Of a stretch of 13,718 nt of DNA, positions 6,001 through 9,000 are shown piece by piece (the stretch's first letter is position 1; every line of letters begins with the position of its first letter). The stretch lies in the UHGV virus genome UHGV-0343652, one strand, 5' to 3'. The position numbers are program-made. Origin of the DNA: a virus.

Positions 6001-9000
6001 ACGACCATGACCTTTCTGTTATTGCGGGACTGATTAAACAACTTTCCAGCAATGTGGCTGTATGGTTAATGACGGAGGAGGAAAAACGCGGTGAACAATA
6101 ACGGCGAAAAATAAACGGGAAATAAAATTAAGACGACGCCTTCAGGAGATTAATTAAATGAAATCAAAAAATACTGGCTTAACTGCCAGTAGCAAAACTC
6201 ACCCCGAATTTATGCGCGGGGATATTTACCGCAATGAATACGGTAGCCACATGACGATGATCAGCAGAGGTAAGAAATGAAAAGCGCACCGAACTTAAAA
6301 AAACAGCCTCGAGGGAAAAAACACGCCGATACGGAAGTGATTATTTTCGCTGGCAGTGATGCGTGGGCGCACGCGAAACAGTGGCTGGAGCAGGACGGAA
6401 AACTTGCCGGAGATAATATACCGCCTGTCGTGCTGGCTGATGAGCAACTTAAAGATATTGGCAATCTGCAAATTGTACCCGACGGGCGCAAATCAGCGCG
6501 GATATACAAGGCCGGACACCTCGATCAGGTGATGGTCAAAGGCATAGGTCAGAAGCTGGCGGCGGCAGGCGTACAGGACGCAGACTATTACCCCGAAGGT
6601 ATGCACCATAACGAGCGGCAGAACTGGCGTAACTATCTGGAGACTGAGCGCAAAAACATTTCTGACGGGCTGGTTATTGAGCTGCCTGTAAAGAAAAAAG
6701 AGCGGGGAAAAGGTGATGATACCACATCACTGGCGCTAAACCAGATGGGGGCAAGCCAGCGCGGCGAAGTTCTTCTGGCACATTATGGCGGCGAACTGGC
6801 AATAAACCCTGACTCTGACACAGTTCACTATTACAACGGGGTTATATGGTCCCCCGTGCAGGACAAAGAGCTACAGCGCACAATGGCGCAGATCTTTATT
6901 GATGAGGATATCTGTTATTCACAAAACGCCATTAAATCGGCGGTTGATACCATGAAGTTAAGTTTACCCGTAATGGGGAATACCGCCCGTAACCTGATTG
7001 GATTCAGTAACGGGGTATTTGATACCCGTACAGGTGATTTCCGTGAACACGATAAAAATGACTGGCTGTTAATTGCCAGTGAGTTACCGTTCACTCCACC
7101 AGCAGAAGGTGAAACGCTGGCAACACATGCGCCGAATTTCTGGAAGTGGTTACGCCGTTCGGTGGCTGAGAATGACCGCAAGGCAGATCGCGTTCTGGCA
7201 GCGTTATTTATGGTGCTGGCGAACCGGTACGACTGGCAGTTATTCATTGAGGTAACAGGTCCTGGTGGAAGCGGTAAAAGTGTTATGGCAGAGATTTGTA
7301 CCATGCTGGCAGGTAAGGCCAACACGGTATCGGCAAGCATGAAGGCACTGGAGGATGCAAGGGAACGTGCATTAGTGGTTGGCTTTTCACTGATTATTCT
7401 GCCGGATATGACCCGCTACGCGGGTGATGGTGCAGGGATAAAGGCCATTACGGGCGGTGACAAGGTGGCAATTGACCCGAAACACAAAGCGCCATACTCA
7501 ACGCGTATTCCGGCGGTTGTGCTGGCGGTTAACAACAGCGCCATGTCATTCAGTGACCGCAGCGGGGGGATCTCACGTCGTCGTGTGATATTCAATTTTT
7601 CGGAGGTTGTACCGGAAAACGAACGCGATCCGATGCTGCCGGAAAAAATAGAAGGTGAGCTTGCTGTAGTGATTCGTCATCTGCTTACACGGTTTGCTGA
7701 TCAGGACGAAGCCAGACGCCTTTTATATGAGCAGCAGAAATCAGAAGAAGCACTGGCGATAAAGCGTGAGGGGGATTCGCTGGTGGACTTCTGCGGCTAT
7801 CTCATGTCGTCGGTAATGTGTGACGGCCTGTTAGTCGGTAATGCTGAGATTATTCCTTTCAGTCCACGCCGTTATCTTTATCACGCCTATCTCTCGTATA
7901 TGAGGGCGCACGGTTTCAGTAAGCCCGTAACACTGACGCGCTTCGGTGCAGATATGCCAGGCGCAATGGCGGAATATGGCAGGGAGTATATGAAAAAGAG
8001 AACTAAAGAAGGTGTGCGATCAAACGTGATACTGACGGATGAGTCTGAGGACTGGCTGCCGTCATGTGCACCAGTGAAAAATGAGGGTGATAAAAATTAA
8101 GTTATAGAAAAACTGTTCACCACTGTTCACCCTGCAATAAATGTATTTAGTATCAATATGTTAATGGGTGAACACTTTTGTAAAACTATTCACCAAAGTA
8201 TTCACCTGTTCACCTTTTTGTATGATTTTTGAACAGTCACTGGTGAACAGGGTGAACAGTTGGTGAACACCTTTACAAAAAGTGTTCACCCCTTAACTTT
8301 ATGAATCTAAAGGTGAAATAGCAAAAGGTGAACAGTTGAACACCTTTTGGGTATAAATTTTTATTTATTCCTCTGAGAAAAATTTTATGACAGAGAAACA
8401 CGCTAAAAAATCACACTCACACGCCATCGATTTAACCGAACAGGGATCAGCAAAAGATCCGCACGGGCAATCGCTCACCATTTCATGACGCTGTATGACC
8501 TGAAAGCGGAAGATGCAGAAAAAGCGGCATGTGATTTATTCGATATGACCACAGATATCATCCAGGAGTACCGGAACAAGGAGCGCAGACCATGACAGCA
8601 CAGATTGCAGCTTACGGGCGGCTGGTGGACGACCCGCAGGAAAAACAGACCAGCAAGGGCACACCGATGACGCTGGCGCGTATGGCGGTATCTTTGCCAT
8701 GCAGTCAGGCACAGGACGGACAGGCGACGTTATGGCTATCAGTCCTGGCATTTGGTAAGCAGGCCGACGCGCTGGCGAGACATGAAAAAGGCGACCTTAT
8801 CAGCGTGGCGGGTAACATGCAGATCAGTCAGTGGACCGGACAGAACGGAGAAACACGGCAGGGCTGGCAGGTTATCGCTGACAGCGTAATCAGTGCCCGT
8901 TCGGCGCGTCCTGGCGGGAAGCGGGGGCAACAGGGGAAGGCGACCGAAGCACAGGAAAGAGCAAAACGACAGACCGGACAGCAGGGAAATCAGCCACCAG

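Follow-up and report, generated by a model that had tools for sequence, protein, structure and literature searches.

The virus genome UHGV-0343652, analysed here as one stretch of 13,718 bp (the window), carries a dense array of short repeats directly after a gene resembling the alpha gene of the satellite P4. The question raised by this locus is whether the array is the site at which the element starts its replication, and to what kind of replicon it belongs. We find that the array is very probably the origin at which Rep starts vegetative replication of a phage-inducible chromosomal island (PICI) of Gram-negative bacteria, of the EcCIRM13514 type and integrated between yicC and dinD. An original prediction made from the DNA alone had also taken the array for an origin, assigning it to an autonomous P4-type replicon.

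The iteron array and its layout

The octamer TGTTCACC or its complement occurs ten times exactly in the window, and nine of these copies fall within the 221 bp between 8114 and 8334 (+ strand: 8114, 8124, 8207 and 8283; − strand: 8167, 8242, 8251, 8262 and 8327). In dinucleotide-preserving shuffles of the window (n = 200) exact copies numbered 0.49 per window on average and 3 at most, with ten or more in none of the 200, ruling out chance or low complexity as the source: the repeat array is real. Three further copies with one mismatch each lie in register within the same stretch (+ 8187 and + 8199, both TATTCACC; − 8335, TGTTCAAC), giving 12 iterons in an array of 229 bp (8114–8342). The earlier count of at least 12 octamers thus holds when degenerate copies are included, and fails as a count of exact ones. 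Its placing of the array immediately after the gene, in AT-rich DNA, is borne out: the first iteron starts 14 bp past the TAA stop of the rep open reading frame (ORF; 6277–8100), A+T is 65% across 8101–8345, and the G+C fraction of the array is 0.34–0.38 compared to about 0.49–0.58 in the flanks.

Along the array the iterons run + + (35 bp) − + + + (27 bp) − − − + (36 bp) − −, with start-to-start distances of 10, 43, 20, 12, 8, 35, 9, 11, 21, 44 and 8 bp, and the region can be divided as follows.

8114..8214: origin module 1 (+ 8114, + 8124, AT spacer, − 8167, + 8187, + 8199, + 8207; spacings 10, 43, 20, 12, 8)
8132..8166: AT-rich spacer 1, 35 bp, 77% A+T, candidate DNA-unwinding site
8215..8241: central spacer, 27 bp, 74% A+T, centre of the palindrome, flanked by the + triplet of module 1 and the − triplet of module 2
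8242..8342: origin module 2 (− 8242, − 8251, − 8262, + 8283, AT spacer, − 8327, − 8335; spacings 9, 11, 21, 44, 8)
8291..8326: AT-rich spacer 2, 36 bp, 72% A+T, corresponding to the 35-bp AT-rich stretch in P4 ori
8343..8386: AT-rich right flank, 77% A+T, where the window has its second least stable 30-mer (8352–8381)
6090..6097, − strand: a lone exact TGTTCACC lying some 180 bp upstream of rep, outside the origin

Each module consists of two iterons, a 35–36-bp AT spacer, one inverted iteron and three iterons. When module 1 (8104–8228) was aligned with the reverse complement of module 2 (8229–8352) the score was 35, compared to 14 in the same orientation and 3.2 ± 1.5 (maximum 9) for shuffles, and an inverted repeat (I1) surrounds the centre with arms at 8176–8214 and 8242–8280. 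Judged from its sequence, the origin is an imperfect palindrome of about 230 bp, made of two inverted modules of about 100 bp that both resemble ori1 of P4; from the outside to the centre it presents the iteron pairs, the 35–36-bp AT spacers and then the triplets, facing each other across 27 bp. We had considered that module 1 might be crr-like (after the second part of the P4 origin) and module 2 ori-like, and dropped this since the modules are inverted copies, both resembling ori1.

No 30-mer of the window is less stable than 8136–8165, which lies within spacer 1 (−28.9 kcal/mol compared to a mean of −41.2, standard deviation 3.4), and 8352–8381, 8089–8118 and 8292–8321 are also among the eight least stable. 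The only match to the IHF consensus in the window, WATCAANNNNTTR at 8151–8163, is in spacer 1 as well; at least one such match arises in 96 of 200 shuffles, so that it is not significant by count, and it is not strictly conserved in relatives. As the array also has no match to the DnaA-box consensus, involvement of these host initiators was set aside.

The tenth exact octamer, at 6090–6097, has no counterpart at the equivalent position among 80 relatives drawn from IMG/VR (Rep 85–88% identical to that of the window). This copy is probably due to chance, consistent with the 0.49 expected per window. Apart from it the window, which is essentially the whole island, has no second iteron cluster.

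Origin, accessory element or operator

Origins of Gram-negative PICIs are located immediately 3′ of rep, where a region rich in A+T lies between two iteron sets (PMC6092414), and the same arrangement is found here: the array follows rep directly on its 3′ side, and two groups of iterons bracket AT-rich DNA. In the island EcCICFT073 the rep-ori segment keeps a temperature-sensitive plasmid at 44°C, an ability that is abolished by deletion of rep and reduced by deletion of ori (PMC6092414). The layout of EcCICFT073 is superimposable on that of the window: the 230 bp after its rep align with our array position for position and contain the same inverted duplication (score 21). The iterons themselves differ, TGTCTACC or a one-mismatch variant occupying the iteron positions (ten within one mismatch) in place of TGTTCACC, which is absent from the 13-kb EcCICFT073 locus. 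We call the array the origin because the island has no other iteron cluster and because of this homology to the DNA that follows rep in EcCICFT073, and on this point we agree with the original prediction.

This octamer was recognised decades ago as the iteron of P4, and as had been proposed it is identical to the type 1 iteron annotated in P4 (NC_001609), whose GenBank 'ori type 1 repeats' include the degenerate forms TGTTCACA, TATTCACC and TCTTCACC. In a full-text search of the literature it turned up solely in primers of no relevance to origins. The likeness extends beyond the octamer. Iterons of P4 ori1 have the same order and orientation as those of module 2 and nearly its spacings (10, 11, 22, 43 and 10 in P4 compared to 9, 11, 21, 44 and 8), and module 2 aligned with P4 9293–9420 gives 77% column identity, non-iteron bases included; the 35-bp AT-rich stretch of P4 ori is at P4 9361–9395 (83% A+T). 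The 120-bp crr units of P4 are shortened forms of this module (score 23 when aligned to module 2). Read on its + strand, P4 has crr in the orientation of module 1 and ori in that of module 2, the same relative orientation as in the window. However, P4 has a bipartite origin, in which about 4.7 kb including the alpha operon separate ori1 from a duplicated crr, whereas the two modules of the window are separated by 27 bp. The layouts suggest that the bipartite origin of P4 may be a split form of the compact palindrome of PICI type.

The comparison with P4 also brings in a different reading of the array, as a crr-like accessory element that is bound by Rep and needed in cis while synthesis starts elsewhere. 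P4 crr sits in the same position, right after alpha, and its units align with the same module, so that the position of the array is by itself insufficient to fix the origin as had been claimed, even though the origin call stands. P4 also has an iteron-free ori2, located inside alpha, making an iteron-free start site conceivable. Nevertheless, both modules have the full layout of six iterons and a 35-bp AT stretch seen in P4 ori1 rather than the shorter crr unit, the stretch from int to attR holds no second cluster, and none occurs within ±6 kb in the 80 IMG/VR relatives. We therefore regard a purely accessory role as very unlikely.

A second alternative is that the array is mainly a regulatory operator, through which Rep would repress or insulate transcription from rep into ssb-proQ-perC, or limit copy number by pairing of arrays. 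The scan of 5900–8700 found no terminator between rep and the array, whose first iteron follows so closely on the stop codon, and some genomes have up to six such arrays. Moreover, iteron arrays of plasmids commonly have both replication and regulatory roles. The same scan of 5900–8700 gave nothing convincing by way of promoters or terminators, the array having a single weak promoter-like match on the minus strand compared to 3.9 expected over the scanned stretch, and the design around AT spacers together with the homology to P4 ori and to the EcCICFT073 region 3′ of rep favours initiation. We give the operator explanation little credence as the main function; a regulatory role could add to the origin role without replacing it.

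Rep and its co-variation with the iterons

Pfam domains and homology divide the presumed initiator as follows.

6277..8100, + strand: rep ('Pri-Rep') gene, 607 aa
aa 1–130 (window 6277–6666), + strand: N-terminal PICI-specific domain, conserved among PICI Rep alleles
aa 164–293: D5_N (Pfam)
aa 327–435: helicase of superfamily 3 (SF3) type, DUF5906 (Pfam)
aa 498–595: C-terminal Pox_D5 origin-binding domain (Pfam)
7771..8061, + strand: coding region of the origin-binding domain (aa 499–595), the presumed iteron reader

In phmmer searches aa 499–595 match the origin-binding domain of P4 alpha (PDB 1KA8; E = 1.1e-23), which is about 50% identical to that of the window Rep, and the helicase (aa 239–442) matches PriRep5 of the Staphylococcus aureus pathogenicity island (SaPI) SaPI5 (PDB 7OLA; E = 1e-9). 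The description of the gene as alpha-like is apt for these two domains and goes no further: the 48% identity to alpha is confined to alpha aa 301–771, helicase plus C-terminal origin-binding domain, whereas identity to the EcCICFT073 Pri-Rep (49%) spans the full length, N-terminal domain included. P4 alpha has a zinc ribbon (aa 30–66) and a Toprim domain (aa 210–299) by Pfam, and the window Rep has neither, aa 1–160 giving no Pfam match even at E ≤ 10. The TIGR01613 match of Rep falls below the cut-off, and the RefSeq label 'DNA primase family protein' appears to be a matter of family naming, without a detectable primase domain behind it. No separate primase gene was found among the island ORFs scanned (Pfam, PHROGs), nor does RefSeq annotate one in the homologous island.

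That the N-terminal domain is a degenerate Toprim or primase relic is unsupported by the Pfam result and by hhalign, in which the Rep N-terminus aligned to alpha aa 1–316 with a probability of 0.6% and a local resemblance of only 35 residues. AlphaFold models aa 1–130 as a small alpha/beta fold (predicted local distance difference test, pLDDT, >90), for which Foldseek found no significant neighbour in the PDB (best E = 0.06). Since this domain of about 130 residues is also present on PICI Reps fused to a RepA/AAA_25-type helicase (P0047, P0050, P0053), it is, as judged from these fusions, a mobile module of PICI initiators.

We compared the array and the Rep C-terminus in the 80 IMG/VR relatives and in a GTDB set of 80 loci from other species (L085–L164), taking 450 bp after each rep or alpha gene. 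Directly after rep, 79 of the 80 IMG/VR relatives have an array of TGTTCACC with a nearly fixed layout. The remaining one, L076 (IMGVR_UViG_2784132061_000002, 4691–4935; Rep 85% identical), keeps the layout with iterons of the form CTGTTCAT(T/C), CTGTTCAT being present nine times, and its Rep, with few substitutions in the C-terminal domain, differs mainly in one short segment, KKRTTAG compared to KKRTKEG in the window Rep; L076 would thus be a natural specificity switch. Concerted change of all iterons with retention of the layout is seen repeatedly in relatives (TGTCTACC, TGTTCATY, TCTCCACC and TGTCCGCC), and loci of other species have one dominant octamer per lineage (TGTTCACC, TGTCTACC, TCTCCACC, TGTCCGCC, TGTCCACC, TATCCACC or TATCTACC). 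In the 80 other-species genomes at least six iteron classes are found immediately past rep, and with each class goes a distinct form of one segment of the C-terminal domain, bounded by the conserved EYGxxY and SN motifs and denoted EYGxxY-SN here.

EYGxxY-SN segment: KKRTKEG-VRSN in the window Rep; KRKQCTRGPDKGRTISN in the class B version

Class A, which includes P4, has no insertion in this segment, the TGTCTACC class has an insertion of five residues, the TCTCCACC class one of a single residue and the TGTCCGCC class a different insertion, while the helices RRYLYHAYLAYM and MPGAMAEYG are conserved across classes. The C-terminal domain of the EcCICFT073 Rep is only 32% identical to that of the window. 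Replacement of all iterons together, with matching changes in Rep, is as expected of functional initiator-binding sites, and the pattern argues that the window Rep may read TGTTCACC as P4 alpha does. By the usual order of winged-helix elements the variable segment is probably the wing; a single-sequence AlphaFold model of the Rep C-terminal domain (mean pLDDT 37) was unusable for placing it. Xenorhabdus and Photorhabdus have many alphas of P4 type (about 813 aa, with zinc ribbon and Toprim) followed by one to five copies of TGTTCACC, in a crr-like manner.

Homologues of the array, searched for as a 253-bp segment, are present in 668 of 5426 complete E. coli genomes (12%), at 820 places and up to six per genome, and nearly every listed match abuts a gene annotated 'DNA primase family protein' or 'primase-like DNA-binding domain-containing protein'. 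Further afield, the induced element vB_KppS-Ant, which has capsid and portal genes, carries a 74% identical array after rep.

These observations bear on the possibility that the array is a decaying relic of P4 type, whose initiator has lost its primase and whose origin is silent, the island being replicated passively. The primase domain of alpha is indeed absent from Rep, and three of the 12 iterons are degenerate. Nevertheless, a primase-less Rep with the conserved N-terminal domain is standard in this family of PICIs, including the replicating EcCICFT073; the rep ORF is intact and equal in length to that of E. coli RM12581; the array is kept in nearly all relatives and in many E. coli genomes, as given above; and concerted iteron changes matched by changes in Rep imply ongoing selection. 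We consider decay the least credible of the alternatives and highly improbable.

A vegetative origin used by Rep is also in keeping with what is described for SaPIs, whose Reps are self-loading helicases and use a C-terminal winged helix to bind the iterons that directly follow rep (PMC9371898). The SaPI Rep shares with the window Rep a homologous helicase domain and likewise has a C-terminal winged-helix iteron reader; its six to twelve iterons are immediately downstream of rep, with AT-rich DNA flanked by oppositely oriented iterons. The differences are that SaPI iterons are of 5–6 bp and unrelated in sequence, compared to 8 bp here, and that a single AT-rich region sits at the centre of the SaPI origin, where the window has a 35-bp AT spacer per module plus a short central one. 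With a homologous helicase, a C-terminal domain predicted to bind iterons and iterons downstream, Rep would count as a self-loading initiator of the SaPI type.

We suggest the following sequence of events. Induction of the rightward operon of the island by a helper phage would lead to synthesis of the 607-aa Rep, the C-terminal winged-helix domain of which would bind the twelve octamers of TGTTCACC type. Adjacent iterons are spaced about one helical turn apart (8–12 bp) and those either side of each AT spacer are oppositely oriented and 43–44 bp apart, so that Rep could gather on both flanks of the least stable DNA of the island. The SF3-type helicase domain may then load itself as hexamers, whereupon an AT spacer would melt and replication start. 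As Rep has no recognisable primase, primers would presumably come from the host DnaG. The island's own gene for the single-stranded DNA-binding protein (SSB) lies just downstream of the origin.

Several points weigh against this account of the array. The anatomy, the homologies, and the conservation and co-variation are shown by the sequences themselves; binding, melting and firing are carried over to this sequence from homologues by analogy, and with three AT-rich spacers present any one of them may melt. In P4 the position directly after alpha belongs to crr and not to an initiation site. No primase is detectable in Rep, zinc ribbon, Toprim and Prim-Pol all being without a match. In P4, alpha binding, looping, ori2 and a requirement for the primase activity of alpha have reportedly been described; that requirement sits poorly with a Rep in which no primase is detectable. 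Finally, deletion of ori in EcCICFT073 cut colony numbers but still left some colonies (PMC6092414).

The island and the wider use of its probable origin

The element is a Gram-negative PICI, EcCIRM13514 at yicC-dinD, and not a P4-like satellite. Positions 6000–9000 are 98% identical to the yicC-dinD locus of Shiga toxin-producing E. coli O145:H28 and O157:H7, and EcCIRM13514 is catalogued as a PICI at the site yicC-dinD (CP006027, 4527455–4539396) with the att core GAGCAGATTCAA (Fillol-Salom et al. 2018, ISME J; PMC6092414, Table S1). Its Pri-Rep is one of four alleles compared with P4 alpha in that study (PMC6092414). EcCIRM13514 and the window island share family, insertion site and att core, and over the array the window is identical at 302 of 303 positions to RM12581, a sister strain of RM13514. 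The window starts directly after yicC and contains attR near its end, and is thus essentially the whole island from int to the right end.

8592..9041, + strand: SSB gene (Pfam SSB, E = 9e-16), next clear gene past the origin, replication module
13576..13587, + strand: attR core GAGCAGATTCAA, right end of the island

As found for PICIs, int (101–1453), the AlpA-like gene (2391–2702) and rep are unidirectional, all on the + strand, the att site is PICI-specific, and there is no full set of phage structural or lysis genes. The order rep-origin-SSB is the same in EcCICFT073 and RM12581. Genes of the island encode an integrase, an AlpA-like regulator, Rha, AntA/Ash, several small proteins, Rep, SSB, ProQ/FinO, PerC and a Q-like protein; the genes sid, psu, delta and epsilon, by which P4 exploits its helper, were absent from the ORFs scanned with Pfam and PHROGs, some small ORFs being unscanned, and from what RefSeq annotates in the homologous island. 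The earlier assignment to a P4-type replicon is accordingly replaced, the more so as the origin is a compact palindrome and not the bipartite ori1 plus crr.

The accessory zones make the island a mosaic, and they differ from those of RM12581: its island, 98% identical elsewhere, loses collinearity with the window at 4135–5321 and 10740–13008, and the AntA/Ash gene (3482–5005), annotated as truncated in RM12581, is intact here. Two full-length matches to the Rfam C4 antisense RNA (RF01695) lie on the + strand in and just after this gene, at 4672–4759 and 5153–5240 (70 and 73 bits, gathering score 45); the C4 family includes the CI immunity RNA of P4. Some Gram-negative PICIs have C4-type RNAs in their 'Bro zone' (PMC10111431). 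Past the origin (8387–8595) there are two short ORFs (33 and 36 aa) that have only about 12 N-terminal residues in common with the 85-aa protein occupying this position in EcCICFT073 and in L010; the sequence suggests a possible recombination breakpoint just right of the origin. The cargo past the replication module (9058–9787 and 12175–12573) comprises an RNA chaperone of the ProQ/FinO family, an activator of the PerC family and a Q-like antiterminator. PerC homologues are able to switch on LEE, the enterocyte effacement locus (PMC6092414).

The finding re-identifies a published feature, in that the 2018 PICI study lists this island in its catalogue and places origins just after rep. The type of origin is already known; the two-module palindrome, the link to P4 ori/crr and the matched series of iterons and Rep segments are incremental additions. 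The position of the origin is useful for annotation, as in Shiga-toxin E. coli such islands bear regulators of the LEE, PerC among them, and the label they usually receive, wrongly, is that of a defective prophage. The palindrome of two ori1-like modules links the split ori/crr of P4 to PICI origins, and at least six iteron specificities on one scaffold offer ready material for the study or the engineering of specificity and incompatibility between initiators and origins.

PICI Rep and P4 alpha have in common TGTTCACC and the same version of the variable C-terminal segment. On this basis we raise, tentatively and as a joint proposal that we think more doubtful than probable, that the two proteins share a recognition code that would allow cross-talk between origins, and that P4 ori1 and crr are the compact palindrome split in two. 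Up to six origin places on one chromosome raise the question of how co-resident islands avoid or exploit cross-activation. If the shared code is true, satellites of P4 type and this family of PICIs could fire, titrate or block each other's origins, and the same could hold among several islands of this origin type within one E. coli chromosome, which would add a layer of interference or cooperation between satellites. If the split form is true, the need for crr in cis would be explained by alpha having to bring the two halves of the origin together.

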